64,000 nucleotides of DNA. Origin: Pseudovirgaria hyperparasitica (taxonomy: Eukaryota). The stretch lies in assembly GCA_010093815.1 (NCBI GenBank), contig ML996566.1. One strand, 5' to 3'. The notes under the pieces are model-generated. The model was not told the DNA's origin and made no database searches. It worked only from the letters and a program-made list of their open reading frames with translations. Shown piece by piece: positions 43,735 through 64,000 of the stretch; position 1 is the stretch's first letter, and each line of letters opens with the position of its first letter. The translations under genes were made by a program, and so were the position numbers.

Positions 43735-44946
43735 AGCGTGGATACGTGAGGTGCTTGGTATCAATGCGGTGTGCGTGTTTATCTGTTATCTGTGTTTCTG
43801 CAGTTGCAGTCGGGTTTTGTGCGTTTAGTAGGAGAGAACACGAAGAAAATGATGCTTGATGGTTGCTCTTATGTATGTGTGTGTGTGCGTTGGAGCTCCT
43901 GGTGCCATTGTGACAGTCACATTGAATGACAGTGAGCCACGGATAGATGATAATCGGGCACTGTGAAGTTCTAAAGGCTTTGAGATGTAAATATGTTTTT
44001 GTCTTGTCATGTGAAATCAACCAGACTCAAAAGATCTTTTGGTCGATACCTTTAGCAACTTGTTCGTCTACAGGGCTTTGTCTTCTGAAAGAGACCGTAG
44101 ACTTGCGCATGGTTGTGCTACAATGTCTGCTCCGTCACAGATAGATCACGTACTTCGTGGGAGCCTTGGAAGCGCCTCCGGAGAGTGTGAAGGTTGATAC
44201 TTAGTGAATTACAGGCTCATACAAGGTCGTTGTCTGCAGGTCTATAGTCAGTGAGCGACCAGGATGGTGTTGGTGAAGGTGAGAGGTGACAGTACGAACC
44301 ACACAGTGGTGATCAAAGACTATATAGCAATCAGCACGTTTACTGAGCATGATCGAGCGCTATTCGTCCCATGGCACATTCAAATGTTTTGAACCTCCCC
44401 AAAGCCTTAGACACTTCTTCGGCGACATTGTCAAGCGACTGCCTTAGCTAAAGCTAAAAAATATTAGAATTACTAGATGGATTCTAGGAGTCCATACCCC
44501 TTGCAGTGTTATCTCGCGTAACAGGGAGTCATGATTTCAAAGCGAGGTTACTGCAGCCAGCCGAATCAGTGTCCCCTGGCCCGCCACTAGTAGAAGCCGG
44601 CGGCCATAAAGCAATCTCATCAATAAGCACCTACACCTGAGTTGCTTACTATACATTGATGAGATGCAGTCTATAGTGCTCTCATGCTTTCCCATTGGAT
44701 GAATTGTCTCTAAACCAACTATTTTTGTACATATGCTAAAGCCTCAGATGATGAGGTGAATAATCCGATAAGAAGTCTGACATTGACTAGTTATTGACAC
44801 CTCCTCATGCACGCCTACAAGTGAACTCTATATAAGAGTAAGCTCAATGTGCCGATGTTTTCAAGAACACATCTTGTCTCTCGTGGTCATTTATTAACAC
44901 TACAATTCCTCATAGCAAACAATTAAGACGTATCGGTCGGTTGAAT

Positions 44947-45972
44947 ATGATGTTGAGCTATTCAGTAGCTGCTGGACTCATCGCCAGTGCTGTTGCAGTT
45001 CCATTATCTCCAGATCACCATTCTGGACGTCTCGAAACCATATACCAATTCCCTAACCACACGTGGCTAGAATCTATAGCTGTACGAAACAACGAGAACA
45101 TACTCACTGGTGCCAATATCAATCTGAAAGGGCTATACAACATAGATCCTTCCCTTCCACAGGAATCGAAAGCCAGACTTATATACCAGTCAGATCGATC
45201 TTCGACCTTTGGCATCACGGAACTGGGGTCGGACATATTCGCATTCACCGTTGGAGACTTCAATTTCACCGACGTAACATCCACACCTGGGACATGGGAT
45301 GTCTATCTTGCCGATCTTAGAAATTTCAATACTCGCACTGGTCAAGGGGCAAAGATTGAAAGAGCTGCTCATGTTCACGATGCCGCAGTACTCAACGGAT
45401 TGGCCACGCTTGACGCTGGGAGGGGTATTATACTAGCATCTGACTCCCTCAAAGGAGTTATCTGGAAAATTGATACCAAAAGCGGCGCCGCAGAGATCTT
45501 CTTGGATGATCCTGCCTTGAAACCCGTTCAGGATGGAACGTCTCTACTCCTTGGCATCAACGGTCTCAAGGTCCAGAACACTGATATCTACTTTACGAAT
45601 AGCTTTCAGCAACTCTATGGTCGTGTCAAACTTGACAGGAAAGGGGAAATCGTCGGAGAGGTAGAGATACTGGCTCAAGGCTTTTTTGCCGATGATCTGG
45701 ATGTCGACGCTCACGGTGATGCTTATATTGGAACAAACATTGGGAACTCTATCATACAAGTAACACCAGATGGCCGGGAACGTGTGGTTGTAGGCGCACA
45801 GAACTCCACGGAAGTCTACGGTCCTACTTCTGTGGCAATTTCGGACCACAACCCGGGCGCTCTGTATATAGCTACCTCGGGTGGTTTTGCGGCTCCTTTG
45901 GGTGAATTTATCGAGGGTGGAAAAGTTCTCTCATATGATTTGAGGCCCCAAAACGGTCATCTAGGAAAGTAG
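44947..45972 (+). CDS. Secreted six-bladed beta-propeller (SMP-30/gluconolactonase, TolB-like)
   Basis: Signal peptide, FP..TWLESIAVR, LNGLATL, ASDS..GVIW, GINGLKV, YFTNS, ADD and GPTSV motifs; TATATAA at 44829. Confidence 0.85.
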   Translation: MMLSYSVAAGLIASAVAVPLSPDHHSGRLETIYQFPNHTWLESIAVRNNENILTGANINLKGLYNIDPSLPQESKARLIYQSDRSSTFGITELGSDIFAFTVGDFNFTDVTSTPGTWDVYLADLRNFNTRTGQGAKIERAAHVHDAAVLNGLATLDAGRGIILASDSLKGVIWKIDTKSGAAEIFLDDPALKPVQDGTSLLLGINGLKVQNTDIYFTNSFQQLYGRVKLDRKGEIVGEVEILAQGFFADDLDVDAHGDAYIGTNIGNSIIQVTPDGRERVVVGAQNSTEVYGPTSVAISDHNPGALYIATSGGFAAPLGEFIEGGKVLSYDLRPQNGHLGK

Positions 45973-46081: not shown

Positions 46082-47169
46082 TTAGACCGTTGAATTCAGG
46101 AGTATTCGTGGTCGGAATGGTACTTTTCGCACATCACCAAGCTTAACCTTACACCTTATGTGCAGCCATGCGTCTGGTTTTGGTTTTTGGGATGCAAGCA
46201 ACGCTCGCTGGCCTTCATCTAAGCGTTGACATCGTACACCACGGCCCATGGACTGTAGCGTCTTGGGATCAATAGCACCTCCAACTCTCCGAAACGGGAA
46301 CTGGAATTTGTACTGACATGCGTCATTAATGACCCTAGGATCAATTTTCCAGGCAATTGCTTGAGAATCAATTTGATGTATGACCCCCGCCTACCGAGAA
46401 GCTTAGTACTGTAACCCTAGTAGATTATGATGCATAACTTACCTGTCCATTTTCCTGCTTAGGGCAACGATAGTATTCCATACATCCTCCAAACAGTCCC
46501 ATTTCAAGTACTCGTCCAGATTCTCCAATGTCCGGTAATTGTCTGTATCCTGGAATAATCATATCCTTGGGCGTATCCTTTCTACCACCACCGATACTGG
46601 TGATCAGGAGATGTGCGCCGCATTCATGGACGACCATCGTTGCGAATGCAAACTGGAAGTCCCTGAACCGCTGGTCTTTGCCATTCCGGGCGGCTGCTAC
46701 CATATCGTATACTCTCTGAGTCAAACATCAGAATATCTCCGGAATCGAAAGCACTGATACATACAGATGCGTTGAAATGAATTCCACCTCGTTCATTGCT
46801 CAGAAAAAATTCTTTGACAGACCCATGCCACGTCCCTCTGGGGTGGTATCCCATGATATCAACGTCGGCAATGTGACCATCGACAAGGACAGTAGGGAAC
46901 TTAAGTATGAGATTATCGATGAACCAATCGACGTATTGAGATGCAGCAGCTTTGTCTTTGTTGAAGAAGCTGGTGCCCGGTGGAGCATTGGCCTCGGAAT
47001 CTAGGGCAATCTTAGTCAGGGCTCTCCTTCCATCGCCGTGAGACATCATAGCACAGCCAATGTTGATGGCCGACGCGATATAGGTATAGATCTCAGTGTT
47101 TGGCCCATGGTGAGAATGATTGAAGCTTCCAGGCTTGCGCTCCTCGATGCTGAACTTTCGGTGTGACAT
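46082..47169 (-). CDS. Hypothetical zincin-like protein with HExxxH and GESG..LE..LFGG motifs, 328 aa, 3 exons
   Basis: Exons 47169-46765, 46715-46443 and 46390-46082; both introns phase 0 (GTATGT..CAG; GTAAGT..CTAAG..TAG). Spliced frame is open: ...VVHECGAH...DTP...GESGRVLEMGLFGG.... Confidence 0.75.
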
Positions 47170-47635
47170 GGTTGCTCCTGACTTTTTGGAACAATGGAAG
47201 GACGTTGAAGAGAAGAACAATGCTAATTTCCCCTTCTTTATGGAACACAAGAGAGTTTTATGGGTGATGGGGAATGAGGAATCAACATGGAGCTGCCATT
47301 TCAGTGTACTTGTACCTGCCTTCTGCTAGACATACATCCAGCTTCATTGAGGCGTAGTGTGACAACTCTATTTCAGTACTTCGAAGAGCCCGCATACCTG
47401 GTCACCTCAGGTCGGTTATCTGGATGAGGTGTCGTTCTTTTCCGTCTTGCTAGTCTGCGCCTTCACCCAATTGCACAATTGAATAGCTGGTGATGATACA
47501 GGGGGTCTCCCAGGTAGCTACGTACCTAGCCTATCACAATGACTGTTGTTAGATACCGAAGTGTTCTATTGGAAAAGGCAGGCACGATCCTCTTGGATTA
47601 GTCGCGCGCTTCGGGCCGTTGGCCGGCCGGAGCAC

Positions 47636-48160
47636 CCGTCCGTAACTTTTTCAGCGCAACTCTTGGCACGTGTCGCGCGCGCAACACATACATTTTCTCT
47701 TATTCTACCTTTTCTCTAATAACTCTAGAATTAAGACTCTAGGAGGTTTTTTAATTATATCTAAATATACTTCTATATAGTCTCTTACTTTCTATTAAAA
47801 AAATTTAAGAAAAAAAGAATATATTAATTAGTTATTCTAAGAAAAGCTCTATAATTATATTTTTAAAGTATATAGGAGGGGTAACTTCTAAAGTACTAAG
47901 GTATATAGTAAAGATAGAGAGAAAATAGAGATTTTCTCTACTATCTATCTCTTTTAGATTCTTTAGTCTTTAAAAGAACTTAATAACTATTCTTAAGAGA
48001 TAAATAGAAGTATATAGGATCTTTTAATATCTTCTAGAGTCTTAAATCTAGAGCTATTTAGGAAAATATAAGGTTCTAAGAATTAGAGGTACCGGTAAAA
48101 AAACGTGTGTGTTGCGCGCGCGACACGTGCCAAGAGTTGCGCTGAAAAAGTTACGGACGG
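47636..48160. mobile_element. Non-autonomous DNA transposon (MITE), 525 bp, RIP-mutated interior
   Basis: 53-bp perfect terminal inverted repeats (CCGTCCGTAACTTTTTCAGCGCAACTCTTGGCACGTGTCGCGCGCGCAACACA), continuing imperfectly inward to about 150 bp. AT-rich interior with no CpA/TpG that I could find; AC dinucleotide on both flanks. Confidence 0.92.
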
Positions 48161-48336
48161 ACGGGTCGCGGGCGCCTACTCAAGGTGGCACAGTCGCCGC
48201 CCGTTCTCTTCCTACCTTACCATCCCTCATTCCTTATTACTTTCCACTATCTATGTGAATCTTGATATTGTGCTGAGTTACCCCAATCAAAGGAATCACT
48301 TCCAATCTCAGAAATACTCGCAAAAACATATCAATA

Positions 48337-49531
48337 ATGCGTGCGCGGCAAGAACCTTCAGCTGTTGTATACGAGACTTACGACTTCCGAGAGGTCTCTA
48401 AAACGACTATCTCAGACCTCTCTCAACACCATCGGGCGGCGGTGGAAAACGCTTTACAGAATATCCTCAATACGGAGCGAGCTTTTGAAACATTTGCCCA
48501 AGTTGTCGATGGTCTTCCAACTAGGAGCACAGCTGAGCAGTATCACGACTACGGACGTTCATCCATGTATTTGAACGGCTTAACAAATGAGCCAAGCACA
48601 GAAGCCAAACAGATCGTTCAAACTTACAGAGAGACTCTCGACCCGTATATTCTTGAGTTCAATGTACCTGTGAGTTATGCCTCAAAGTGCTCATTCACTC
48701 TTTGATGTTTTTATCCAGGTGATACAAGCGTACCAGAACGCGGACTTTGGTTCTCGAGACTTCAACATCCGCCTTTTGGAGTTGCTTGCAGTTGCATGTC
48801 ATCAATTAGCTGCGTTGATTTTCCAGAGTGCGGATGGCGGCTTAAAGAAGTACCCGTACGGCCACAATTACGAAGCCCCTGCTTCACAGCCCACGGAGCC
48901 TGCTGTAGACTTGAGTTTTCTTGGACCCATCAAACCACAGGCGCCTGATGACCACGACGATGATGCCTCCGAACCGGATTTGTTTCCTTTTATCGCGAAC
49001 GAGTATGTCGATAGACCTCCAACGGAGCTTTACCACGGATACTACCAGGATCATGACCAGTATCCACGAGGCGTTGCTGATATCGTTGGCTACTGGGCAG
49101 AAACACGCCTCTTCGGAGGTGTAATCTTGTTTGACCGCGGTGCTTCTGAATCTGAGGTATTATAACCGCAGCCAGTGTAGGATGTATTGGTGCAGCTAAC
49201 ATGCGAGCAGGCTATTGACGTCTTTTTCCACCCCGATTACTTCCAGGGTGTTGGCAACATTTACCAGGTGTCAGATACACAACTTCAAAATCTTATGGCT
49301 TTCGCACTCGAGCATGAGCCTACTAGTGAAAGCCCACGTTTCAGCCATGAATGGGGGCTGCGCAAGTTCAAAAGTTGGACTTCAATGCAAGCCAACGTGT
49401 TCAGGGACCGCTATGAAAGGAAAATCCCCGTTGATGCAAACCACGGCTGCGTGCTCAGGCTAGATGACGAGGACACCGCAATATACCTCGAAAACTTCAG
49501 GAGAGGCACGGCCAATGCACACTCTGATTGA
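48337..49531 (+). CDS. Hypothetical protein with HQLAA and GYWAE..LFGGV.LFDR motifs, 363 aa, 3 exons
   Basis: Exons 48337-48669, 48719-49156 and 49211-49531; phase-0 GT..AG introns; spliced frame is open. Confidence 0.8.
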
Positions 49532-50781: not shown

Positions 50782-51237
50782 CTACTGTGACTTCCTGCCG
50801 CTCCTATGAACCCAAATACCTAGAAACAAACTAATGAGGAAGAAGATGGCAGCCAGGAAGCTGAAGGCCTGCCAAGCTTTCGCTCTACCACACACGCTGC
50901 GTAACCTTCTCAAGTCACAGCCTCTGTCTGAATCATTGATGGGCTCGAAGTAGTGGGCCGAGACACCGAAAGCAGCAAACCACAGGATTGATAGTATGCC
51001 GTCCACGACCCATAGGCTGAAAGTCGCCTTGAATGGAATAAGTAAAACCAGGCTGGCAAGTGTTCCAAGAGCGCTGACGGCGAGGACGTAGTAGATCCAC
51101 TCCCAGGAATCAGGAAGTCTCGAGTAGCCATTGTCGTTGTACAAGCTGACCTCATAAGCTACAATGCCCATGACAATCACAGAAGAAATGAATTGTAGAA
51201 CCCGAAGGGCGAATGAGAGGATCCGTGAGATGACCAT
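50782..51237 (-). CDS. MARVEL (membrane-associating) domain 4-TM protein
   Basis: LRVLQF...IVMG, D.ILSILWFAAFG and C...KA..AFSFL pattern; four hydrophobic segments. Confidence 0.8.
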   Translation of the reverse strand: MVISRILSFALRVLQFISSVIVMGIVAYEVSLYNDNGYSRLPDSWEWIYYVLAVSALGTLASLVLLIPFKATFSLWVVDGILSILWFAAFGVSAHYFEPINDSDRGCDLRRLRSVCGRAKAWQAFSFLAAIFFLISLFLGIWVHRSGRKSQ

Positions 51238-52978
51238 GATGAAGATTCAGGGATCTGCAGAAGTTCTTGTGGTGCTTGGAGGGTTTGTTTATATATCCAA
51301 AGTCCAATGAGGCTTGTAGGATCTTTCTGGTGGGACATGAACAGGCAGGCTTCCGTCTTTATACACGCCTGTCCCACCGCCATGCCTCTAGAGTCTACAT
51401 GCTTTGCTGTTTGAGGTTTCGAGATCGAGTATAATTTTCGTCATTCGAACACTTCTGCCAACAACACGCCTTATTAGTCGTGCTCGGCCTTGCGATCTGC
51501 ACCACGTCTCGCTTTCTCCACCAGTACTTTTGCTTCGATTCGTGGTGTTTGTGGAGATCAACCAACGGTATGACGTAGGTCAAGCCTTCAGCCACAATGC
51601 AGCCAAGAACCAAGGAAAGCGCCAGACCATTTTGGTATTACTGTTGAACTATGGAACGTACACTTATCTACTTTCTCACATCATGCGAGCTGTGCCAGCA
51701 CATCCTTTCTCTCGGCAGTCTCGTGATTGTCTTCATTCGTCTCTCGTGAGGCTGTGAAATGGCTTAGCGAATGACGTACGCAGCACTGCAAGCTTGCATG
51801 CATGAATGATTATCGTATGGATGAATTAAGCGTGGCGAAGATGCAGCTTACACTCTATATGCCTTCTCCTTGCTGTTAAAAGACTAGAGACAAATTAATT
51901 GGAGGCTACGCGCCTGATTAGGGCAGTATGGGCTGACACAATACCCAGCTTGGATATACCTATGTTTTAACCCGCTAGCTAGTCTTGATCGTACGACGTG
52001 TTATCATAACATCAGCCAATTCAACATACGCGCTCAGGGATCCCCCATGGAAAGGAGATCTCTCGTCAACCCAATATGGGAGTCACAGCAATAATGCCAT
52101 AAACCGTGTTTGAATAACGTTGTATCACTTCGCCGTAACATCGAGGACTGATGCTATATACGATAAACATTGATAGGGACTCCAACAAAGTAAGCAATAT
52201 AATGCCACTGCCTATTGTTTAGAAAGGTGTGCCCAATAATAACTCCTGTAACTAATAGCATCAATAGTGCTCAGAGCTCGTTCCCTTCGGCCATCCATTG
52301 CCCAAACCGGACTAGTACCATATGTGCTCTAGCCAATACCCGTCGTTTCATCTCCTACCTATATTGGTATGAACGCAGCGAGTGGAGACTTCTTGGGGAG
52401 ATTTACTACTTGTCAAGTTAGCCACCAACTCCGAGGCTAGAATTCGTGTGCCTTTGTCACTCGTGCTTCTTCCATGATTCGAGCACCGCCGTAGCCCTAG
52501 ATTCTCAATCCAAATTCCCACCACAGCTTATGATTCTAGCATCTATGCTACATCTGATAGTATACTCTCGAGCATCTTCTAGACTTGGAAACGGGTTTAC
52601 GACCCAGCTTTGTGTACTCCGGGAACATCTCGGACTAAGTACTGCTTGGTACACATATTGCAAGGGCGAATATGAGCGGCAGGGGTCGATGCATCGGGTA
52701 TCATAGGGCAAGCGACAGGGAAAATAGATCGGGAGACATGCATGATATGTTCTTACTAGTCTAGAAGCGTAAGTATAAGAAATTTATCGGTAGGAGAGGA
52801 ACAATCTGCGACTTTAGTACATGCTTGGGTTGTAAAGAGTAATGGATGGTTACTGGGTCGTGATTACGGCGTCTTCTACGCATACATTATCATACATATC
52901 TAGCGGATAGTTTTTCTTCATCCCACTCGTCAGCAGCTGCTCATCTGTATGTACATTGATCGTTGACCAGTGAACTGG

Positions 52979-62931: not shown

Positions 62932-64000
62932 TCAGTCCAAATAACATCCATACTTTACACCAAATGCATACGCCAAAAAAGAATCCGCATTCAACAGCGC
63001 CTGATCACTTGGCAATGCCAGCGAACCGTTCGGTCCGTATGCATAATCACCCGTCGCCGGCTTATATATTTCCTCATTATGGCTCATTTCATGTAGCAAA
63101 ATCCCTGCACGTGAATCATAACCCCGACAAGTATCTGGCATCACAGGATAGTCGTAAAACACGGGACAGAAGAACAAGTTGCCGCCAGGATTTGTTGCAT
63201 ACGCTGCGATGGACGACCTGTTGGTGCAGTAGTTCATACCATAGGGCTCAACGCAGTGCAGATAGGGTGTGGTGCCGATGGTCAAAACGGCTGAGGCCAT
63301 GGCGTCGAAACGTGCGGCTACATGTTCACGGGCGGTTGTGTTGGTCGTTTTGAAGAAGAATTCGAATTGATCGGCTGGGCCTGAGCGTGCTGCGCTCGCA
63401 GCATGACTGGCTAACAGCGATGCTTCTTTTATGGTTATGTTGGTGAATTTGGCGGATTGTTCGGGATCAGAGCAGTCGATCATTGATGCTCTTTCTGACG
63501 ATTGACTTGCGAAGTCGCGAAAACTTTGAGCCGCTCGAGTACCGTTGATTTCGATTGCAAGCTTGTTGCTGCTATACGGAACACTTGCGCCGCTGAGCGA
63601 AGTTGAGTCTGGGGTGCCGAGAAGGAAAAGGCCTTTGGTGAAGACGGTGTAATTGCCTCCAATGCTCAAGTCATGCACTTCTGCTGGATCAATGGTAATC
63701 TCTATAGTCTCCCCGGGATACAGAGAAGTGAAATCGCTCATTCTCAATCTGTCTATCGCTGGATAGAGATGGTAACCGTTGAAGTCGACTTTGACATCTA
63801 GCAATAGTCAGAACTTATATTCGAGACTATCATCGATCGAAACTTTACCACCAGAGAATACCATCAGCTTTTCGACATATCCATCGTCATCGAGAAGATT
63901 ATCAAAACCTAGAAGGCTTAGAGTTTCCGCGCCGTTATTGGCGATAGTCGCCTTAATTCCTGACGCTGCATCTTGACTCAATGAGACATCCACCGGCTGG
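62932..64000 (-). CDS. Deuterolysin / neutral protease 2 (peptidase M35), 5' end outside the window
   Basis: LLHEMSH zinc motif, DYAYG and NADS motifs, pro-domain; intron 63798-63848. Confidence 0.9.

Follow-up and report, generated by a model that had tools for sequence, protein, structure and literature searches.

Two small genes stand head to head on contig ML996566.1 of Pseudovirgaria hyperparasitica (GenBank assembly GCA_010093815.1), within a stretch of 64,000 nucleotides that is called the window below. Our analysis indicated that they are a real, expressed, and widely recurring head-to-head pair, in which the left gene encodes a probable zinc peptidase and the right gene a peptidase-dead paralog.

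Gene structure and expression

An initial annotation, made from the sequence alone, had described the locus as two divergently transcribed three-exon genes for proteins of 328 and 363 residues with phase-0 introns (Table 1), and both the gene models and the spliced contigs agreed with it. The motifs it quoted were correct, as were the distances from intron 1 to the conserved His (29 residues in the left protein and 27 in the right) and from the FGG motif to intron 2 (14 and 12 codons). Hypothetical proteins of P. hyperparasitica held by NCBI match the lengths of both models (P0013 for the left gene and P0001 for the right). Contigs of runs X3 and X4, both from one sample, skipped exactly the four introns, while the DNA runs X1 and X2 retained them; the exact skipping demonstrated that both genes are transcribed and spliced, and both three-exon genes are real. 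The spliced contigs extended to 47545/47552 on the left and to 48216/48311 on the right. Their depth was not the same for the two genes, a difference that does not serve to rank them.

Right intron 1 was found as a phase-0 GT-AG intron at the same column in 46 of 58 informative right-family clusters (the window counted), and the column of right intron 2 was interrupted in 25 of 59. Seven clusters were informative for left intron 1: a clean phase-0 intron was present in three (the window, L026, and L031), two were open across the column, and two had a predicted donor directly after a stop codon and were left uncounted.

What the initial annotation overlooked was the 525-bp element between the genes, a miniature inverted-repeat transposable element (MITE) that takes up the greater part of the space separating the two transcripts. 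Its terminal inverted repeats of 61 nt lie at 47636-47696 and 48100-48160. The interior has a guanine-plus-cytosine content of 0.24 and contains no CpA or TpG, while the terminal repeats are spared, a composition that we take to be the signature of repeat-induced point mutation (RIP). The flanking duplication is 2 bp long, AC here and AT in four copies elsewhere, and the AT duplication presumably recalls ISL2EU/Pangu-type elements. As 94 matching pieces were found in the genome, the element is a dispersed repeat; it was for that reason rejected as a part of the two-gene system and regarded as a passenger.

Table 1. Positions of the two genes, the region between them, and the protein segments discussed in the text
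Feature	Position in window	Strand	Description
Left gene	47169-46765, 46715-46443, 46390-46082 (span 46082..47169)	-	3 exons, 328 aa
Left intron 1	46716..46764	-	49 nt, phase 0
Left intron 2	46391..46442	-	52 nt, phase 0
HExxxH (H165, E166, H170)	46611..46628	-	Inside predicted helix 149-176
G-E200-[SA]-G-R-x-x-E206-x3-F-G-G segment	46485..46526	-	Downstream of HExxxH
Divergent intergenic region	47170..48336	.	1167 bp between start codons
Non-autonomous DNA transposon (MITE)	47636..48160	.	525 bp, inverted-repeat element
Right gene	48337-48669, 48719-49156, 49211-49531 (span 48337..49531)	+	3 exons, 363 aa
Right intron 1	48670..48718	+	49 nt, phase 0
Right intron 2	49157..49210	+	54 nt, phase 0
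Remnant zincin helix motif	48800..48817	+	H139 kept; catalytic Glu and second His gone
Length-variable acidic loop, approximately residues 150-210	48833..49015	+	Low confidence, predicted local distance difference test (pLDDT) 49-73
Signature H217-x2-Y220...Y226-P-x-G-x-A-D232-x2-G-Y-W-x-E239-x3-F-G-G	49034..49120	+	Right family

The left protein

The left product belongs to an unnamed ascomycete family and is probably a zinc peptidase located in the cytoplasm. The search with this protein returned 219 relatives at E 0.001 among representatives at 50% identity, of which the best 150 were listed, and of the 29 that were looked up, those with names were filamentous ascomycetes. The zincin-like character that had been read from the intact motif was borne out by the family, as HExxH (41 sequences) or HExxxH (60 sequences) was found together with Glu200 in 101 of the 108 relatives spanning the region. 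Position by position, H165 was conserved in 115/120, E166 in 114/120, H170 in 113/120, E200 in 115/121, and E206 in 107/121. By analogy with thermolysin-type sites, E200 of the GESG segment would be the likelier third zinc ligand. The Glu common to both families (E206 on the left, E239 on the right) would probably be structural, contacting the first His from the second shell; this would account for the right family keeping its His-Glu pair. The downstream Glu that completes a zincin zinc site would in this reading be Glu200 of the left protein, and probably not the shared Glu.

The structural model of the left protein was of high confidence (pLDDT 90.3, predicted template modelling score (pTM) 0.90). 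In a comparison with 48,161 chains, the best 13 of the 50 listed matches were zincin peptidases by title, the first being deuterolysin (1eb6; Z 5.8, root-mean-square deviation 4.3, 135 aligned residues), and selecase (4qhf) scored Z 5.3. The motif, its position within the helix, and the uniform match list together suggest a zincin-like fold; the Z values prove little alone. Foldseek against the PDB and viral models returned nothing at E 0.001 for either the left or the right model, a PDB sequence search placed neither protein above the cut-off, and neither family rose above the cut-off in Pfam and NCBIfam, whether searched with the 6 exons (E 1) or with family members (56 left and 46 right, E 0.1). 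These absent library matches do not demonstrate a new fold. Hydrophobic, signal-peptide-like N-termini were rare, occurring in 2 of 56 left and 1 of 46 right members, so both proteins are probably cytoplasmic.

Relatives outside the fungi were sought with a DNA pattern for the left family, which matched at least 120 bacterial and 2 viral stretches. These contained 67 motif matches in open frames, one of them with an upstream HExx(x)H-like string, and none of 16 pattern matches in viral contigs was confirmed. The best hidden Markov model (HMM) match had an E-value of 0.0035 on DNA already selected by the pattern, and the viral and bacterial candidates were rejected as chance.

The right protein

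The right product appears to be a peptidase-dead paralog belonging to a second unnamed ascomycete family. Searches with this protein gave 12 and then 56 matches, the second having scored 8000 candidates, and 80 of 117 confirmed metagenome loci were kept. Residues were counted over 119 rows, made up of 60 proteins and one locus from each of 59 clusters. H139, the counterpart of the first zinc-binding His, was present in 114/114 sequences, while a complete HExxH or HExxxH motif occurred in 0/113. Among the 113 rows, the residue after H139 was Q in 58, E in 16, and G in 15; His was at +4 in none and at +5 in 15, all of them without the Glu. At the position matching left E200, Glu was present in 1/117. 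The initial annotation had called the right protein dead by an E-to-Q change and loss of the second His: the motif loss stood, and the E-to-Q change proved to be the state of this member only. That the right protein is dead as a peptidase is well supported by these alignments; that it is devoid of all activity is not supported.

The alignment also suggested that the right family is not decaying, as it has invariant or near-fixed residues of its own. D232 (117/117), Y226 (117/117), R251 (117/117), and E239 (116/116) stand beside H139 in this respect, and H217 was kept in 109/116. The right model was of lower quality than the left (pLDDT 80.7, pTM 0.79); 8 of its best 11 fold matches were zincins, with Z at most 4.0, and the top row was a dynein. 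Homology to the left family lends a zincin fold of the right protein indirect support. The spacer that forms the acidic loop is 83 residues long here against a family median of 51, and membrane segments were predicted in 3 of 46 members. Broken right genes were found at four loci (L048, L054, L072, and L098) and at none of 12 linked loci; four are too few to interpret, and they are possibly assembly errors.

Two further observations concern gene arrangement within the families. At L056:228-3086, two right-family genes lie in tandem on the same strand. The longer database entries P0034, P0037, and P0232 combine a right domain with Fungal_trans_2 or a left domain with DUF7600, and are probably merged gene models.

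Paralogy of the two families

Direct comparison of the left and right proteins by BLASTP was not significant (E 0.83), whereas the family profiles matched over 96 columns (Prob 84.9, E 6.5e-6), pairing H165 with H139, E206 with E239, and FGG with FGG. Query-trimmed profiles scored 40.4 (Prob 57, E 1e-4); none of 100 block shuffles exceeded 29.4, and the reversed profile reached 25.1. The two intron-1 junctions fell on one aligned column, both in phase 0, with an aligner that is blind to introns. When the profiles were split, the N-terminal halves alone matched at E 0.0047 and the C-terminal tails alone gave no match, which limits the sequence support to the core.

Comparison of the DSSP strings by eye showed a corresponding order of helices and strands along both models. 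Only the left model has a helix and further strands between residues 94 and 123, and only the right model has the long low-confidence loop at about residues 150-210. In the ESM Atlas, the left model matched a 357-aa cluster of 57 members at a template modelling (TM) score of 0.52, and the same cluster, equated by size only, appears to be the best structural match of the right protein (TM 0.70). Taken together, the profiles and the shared intron column support the two families being ancient, distant paralogs. The initial annotation had proposed such paralogy despite little overall identity, and had named as evidence against it the lack of a profile match and the families being unlinked elsewhere; a profile match was obtained that exceeded all 100 shuffles, and the families were linked in other fungi, as described below.

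Recurrent head-to-head linkage

Linkage was surveyed as the neighbors of right-family loci in metagenomes, with the 80 loci grouped into 62 clusters at 90% identity. A left gene lay upstream on the opposite strand, 0.2-1.7 kb away, in 12 of the 62 clusters. No left gene was found downstream of a right gene in the 271 kb read, and none on the same strand in the 62 clusters. The left gene was the only neighbor to recur in more than three of the 62 representative loci, and the window's flanking genes had no match in the flanks of those loci. Annotated genomes agreed with the survey: in Arachnomyces, the best left relative (FQN54_003890) and a top right relative (FQN54_003891) have adjacent tags on contigs of equal length, and in Sporormia the pair has consecutive accessions (KAF2749455.1 and KAF2749456.1), these records giving adjacency and not orientation. 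The linked lineages span Dothideomycetes and Eurotiomycetes, and one further locus (L037) falls in Sordariomycetes by its best match, at 74% to a Staphylotrichum protein. Conserved tight linkage, a criterion for toxin-antidote systems, was found in the 12 clusters and in Arachnomyces and Sporormia, and the recurrence that the initial annotation had proposed to look for was confirmed.

Linkage was not universal. Among clusters with at least 3 kb of upstream sequence, 7 were linked and 19 had no left neighbor; with at least 2 kb, the counts were 11 and 25. On a tree of 115 columns, in which 28 of 62 rows were unlabelled, linked and solo right genes were interleaved (10 changes, with a shuffled mean of about 11.3). 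As the linked right genes form no clade, a single recent origin of linkage was rejected, and the interleaving fits an ancestral pair whose left gene was repeatedly lost or moved far away. For 14 pairs, the within-pair distances were correlated (rho 0.34, Mantel p 0.0016; L031, a partial sequence, left out), a result that indicates co-inheritance only and that kinship alone can produce. HExx(x)H was kept in 11 of the 12 linked left genes. The left gene at L022:249-1285 (- strand) has lost both catalytic motifs and has a RIP-damaged look; the right gene next to it is intact and, over exon 2, identical to a Trichophyton rubrum protein.

Other genes near the pair were also recorded. In the window, the product of the gene at 44842-45972 (+ strand) resembles SMP-30/gluconolactonase weakly and below the cut-off (E 1.7e-4), and the gene at 50782-51246 (- strand) encodes a MARVEL protein. 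A canonical deuterolysin-type gene of family M35 (E 1e-45 to PF02102) lies at 62932-63807 (- strand), 13 kb off and unrelated to the pair. At L034:5331-7667 (- strand), in a cluster with L095, a dipeptidyl peptidase III (M49) gene is head to head with a solo right gene; this is one cluster and probably a coincidence.

Some flanking genes hinted at a role in conflict. In scans of selected open frames (85 at linked and 106 at solo loci) run with no background control, PNP_UDP followed by NB-ARC-TPR frames was found near a family member (L047:1290-4487), HeLo and WD40 genes were found at L066:4995-10181, and a HET-S gene was found near a solo right gene (L019:1738-2805). A right-family protein was fused once to a HET domain (P0009), possibly through an annotation merge. 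Language-model features compared with a cluster carrying Tox-MPTase3 on 12% of its members gave 0.93 for the left protein and 0.83 for the right. The NOD-like receptor, HeLo, HET-S, and HET neighbors and these scores are hints only.

Proposed function of the pair

In our judgement, the two genes very probably work as one functional unit. How the unit works can be proposed more tentatively, and we lean, short of even confidence, toward a cytoplasmic effector protease restrained by its pseudo-protease paralog. Long ago, inverted duplication of a zincin gene would have produced a two-gene module, which would then have persisted as a cassette that relocates as a whole, built around a short promoter region common to both genes. 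In the left peptidase, H165, H170, and probably E200 would bind the metal, with E166 as the general base. The free left protein would be harmful and would serve as an effector in fungal conflict, whether in non-self defence, cell death, or as a selfish element. The right protein, having kept the helical scaffold and lost the catalytic set, would bind its cognate left protein and keep it inactive, in the role of antidote or guard. The inhibitor, sensor, or decoy role that the initial annotation had offered is an inference. Metal ligands, proteolysis, physical binding, toxicity, and the conflict role are each conditional in this proposal. The proposal fits the asymmetry expected of an antidote, seen in the solo right genes and in the disarmed left gene at L022 with its intact right neighbor, and it also fits the unrelated flanks and the weak hints of conflict.

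A broader version is possible though somewhat more doubtful still, namely that the pair represents an ascomycete-wide toxin-antidote or immune module, with a zinc protease as effector and an inactive self-copy as guard, carried as a head-to-head cassette that leaves orphan antidotes behind, and possibly derived from polymorphic-toxin metallopeptidases.

Several observations weigh against a restrained effector. Over 14 pairs, mean exon 2 identity was 42% for the right protein and 31% for the left, and the higher conservation of the right family suggests that it has an independent task. More right genes are solo than paired, and the solo ones retain the invariant polar residues. Four single-protein searches of the P. 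hyperparasitica genome led to this locus alone, although distant paralogs could escape them, so that the genome apparently holds one copy of each gene with no sign of expansion. Several pairs lie amid housekeeping genes (L040, L043, and L022). In Blastomyces, left and right genes (P0015/P0024 and P0081/P0224) are 77-84 locus tags apart, in one strain on contigs of equal length, possibly as a broken-up pair or as separate pairs. The fold Z-scores are low for both proteins (at most 5.8 for the left and 4.0 for the right).

Some of these observations lead to the strongest of the alternatives, in which the right protein would be an enzyme or ligand binder with a rebuilt site (H139, H217, D232, E239, R251, and H264), and the two genes would share a bidirectional promoter and act on related substrates with no mutual binding. 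The near-invariant polar residues across the 119 right sequences, the frequency of solo right copies, and the greater conservation of the right family all point this way. However, H139 and E239 correspond to H165 and E206 of the left protein and may belong to the scaffold, and the right model is without the strand region present at residues 94-123 of the left model; in zincins, the strand region lines the substrate cleft. We consider a rebuilt site unlikely.

Less likely again is a protease-executor pair, in which the left protein would cleave the right, for instance in the variable loop at residues 150-210, and so activate it as an effector. The gasdermin-protease clusters of fungi provide a precedent (PMC8851545), and the long low-confidence loop, the right protein being the more conserved partner, and the single HET fusion (P0009) would suit an executor. 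Yet library and fold searches found no known death or pore-forming domain in the right protein, few members of its family have predicted membrane segments (3/46), neither the length nor the sequence of the loop is conserved, and the solo fraction of 19/26 is far above the 20% of gasdermins.

We give a similarly low chance to a heterodimeric peptidase, with the dead paralog as an activating or substrate-binding subunit in a housekeeping or signalling role. Heterodimers of an enzyme and an inactive paralog are an established pattern among zinc peptidases (M16 MPP alpha/beta and Rpn11/Rpn8), the members of each pair appear co-inherited by the distance test (rho 0.34, p 0.0016, 14 pairs, for which kinship could suffice), and both genes were spliced in one sample. 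Patchy linkage, repeated loss of the left gene, and unrelated flanks are unlike a housekeeping complex, and solo right genes would be partnerless unless the partner acts in trans. Least probable is a neutral relic of unrelated functions, retained as promoter rearrangements are harmful: inverted duplication does naturally yield head-to-head genes and most informative right genes have no left neighbor, but the pair has moved jointly into unrelated neighborhoods in three classes despite divergence to 31-42% mean identity, and neither spacer lengths of 0.2-1.7 kb nor the insertion of a transposon has broken it up.

Restraint of the left peptidase by its paralog remains the reading that we prefer. 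If the right protein does restrain the left, a zinc-protease class would be added to fungal cell-death or selfish-gene modules, and the toxin's own dead copy would have become its antidote. Even without a conflict role, the locus provides a new probable enzyme/pseudo-enzyme pair in two small genes. For two large unnamed families in filamentous ascomycetes, the results supply a probable fold, a kinship, and a partnership that can be tested.

Comparison with known systems

The left protein shares with the zincins (clan MA) an HExx(x)H motif in a long helix and a downstream Glu before the next helix. It differs from known zincins in having no sequence-family match or signal peptide, in its mixture of HExxH and HExxxH, and in its dead paralogous partner. 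Its best fold match comes from the M35 deuterolysins or aspzincins, which are secreted zymogens, whereas the left protein has no PF02102 or PF14521 match and no hydrophobic N-terminus. Dipeptidyl peptidase III (M49) is the textbook HExxxH peptidase, and the six-residue motif is shared by the window's left protein and 60 of 108 relatives; however, the left protein has no PF03571 match and is less than two-thirds as long as the 548-position M49 profile. The spacing varies within the left family, so its HExxxH would be a one-residue insertion independent of M49.

Among bacterial toxins, the closest candidate was Tox-MPTase3 (PF15639), a domain of bacterial polymorphic toxins that is predicted to be a metallopeptidase toxin and is described with the conserved features K, HExxH, and F[DE] (PMC3482391). 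The table in that paper lists it for alpha-proteobacteria and Bacteroidetes only and gives no immunity protein (PMC3482391); the alignments attached to that paper could include fungal relatives. The likeness consists of an HExxH zincin motif and language-model features. The PF15639 HMM matched none of the 6 exons at E 1 and no family member (56 left, 46 right) at E 0.1. Tox-MPTase3 is the C-terminal domain of an exported RHS/PVC toxin, while the left protein of 328 aa is encoded by a stand-alone, intron-containing gene, and the fungal proteins carry neither RHS repeats nor export domains. Membership was rejected because both the HMM and the architecture fail.

Full-text literature searches, which took in few subscription papers, found neither family described, nor the pair. 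A review from 2025 on regulated cell death in fungi has no word starting with "metallo" or "zincin" (PMC12881547), and the accessible parts of PMC3239186 and PMC7804941 contain nothing bearing on the pair. The pair is probably undescribed itself, while belonging to two known kinds of system, two-gene fungal modules and enzyme/pseudo-enzyme pairs. In M16 MPP alpha/beta and Rpn11/Rpn8, as would be the case here, an inactive paralog that keeps the fold accompanies an active enzyme; those systems have other folds and are universal housekeeping complexes, in contrast to the patchy, relocating head-to-head cassette found here.

The gasdermin-protease clusters are the closest to the pair in fungal logic. 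Approximately 80% of 1,884 fungal gasdermins lay no more than 10 kb from a protease gene, and 20% were solo (PMC8851545). Neither protein family contained a gasdermin, S8, or CHAT domain by library and fold searches. The likeness to het-Q1/het-Q2 lies in widespread two-gene clusters of a cytoplasmic protease and a cognate partner, with solo copies of the partner; the same source describes the het-Q clusters as joining an S8 or CHAT protease to an unrelated pore-former (PMC8851545), whereas in P. hyperparasitica and its relatives a probable zincin is joined to its own paralog.

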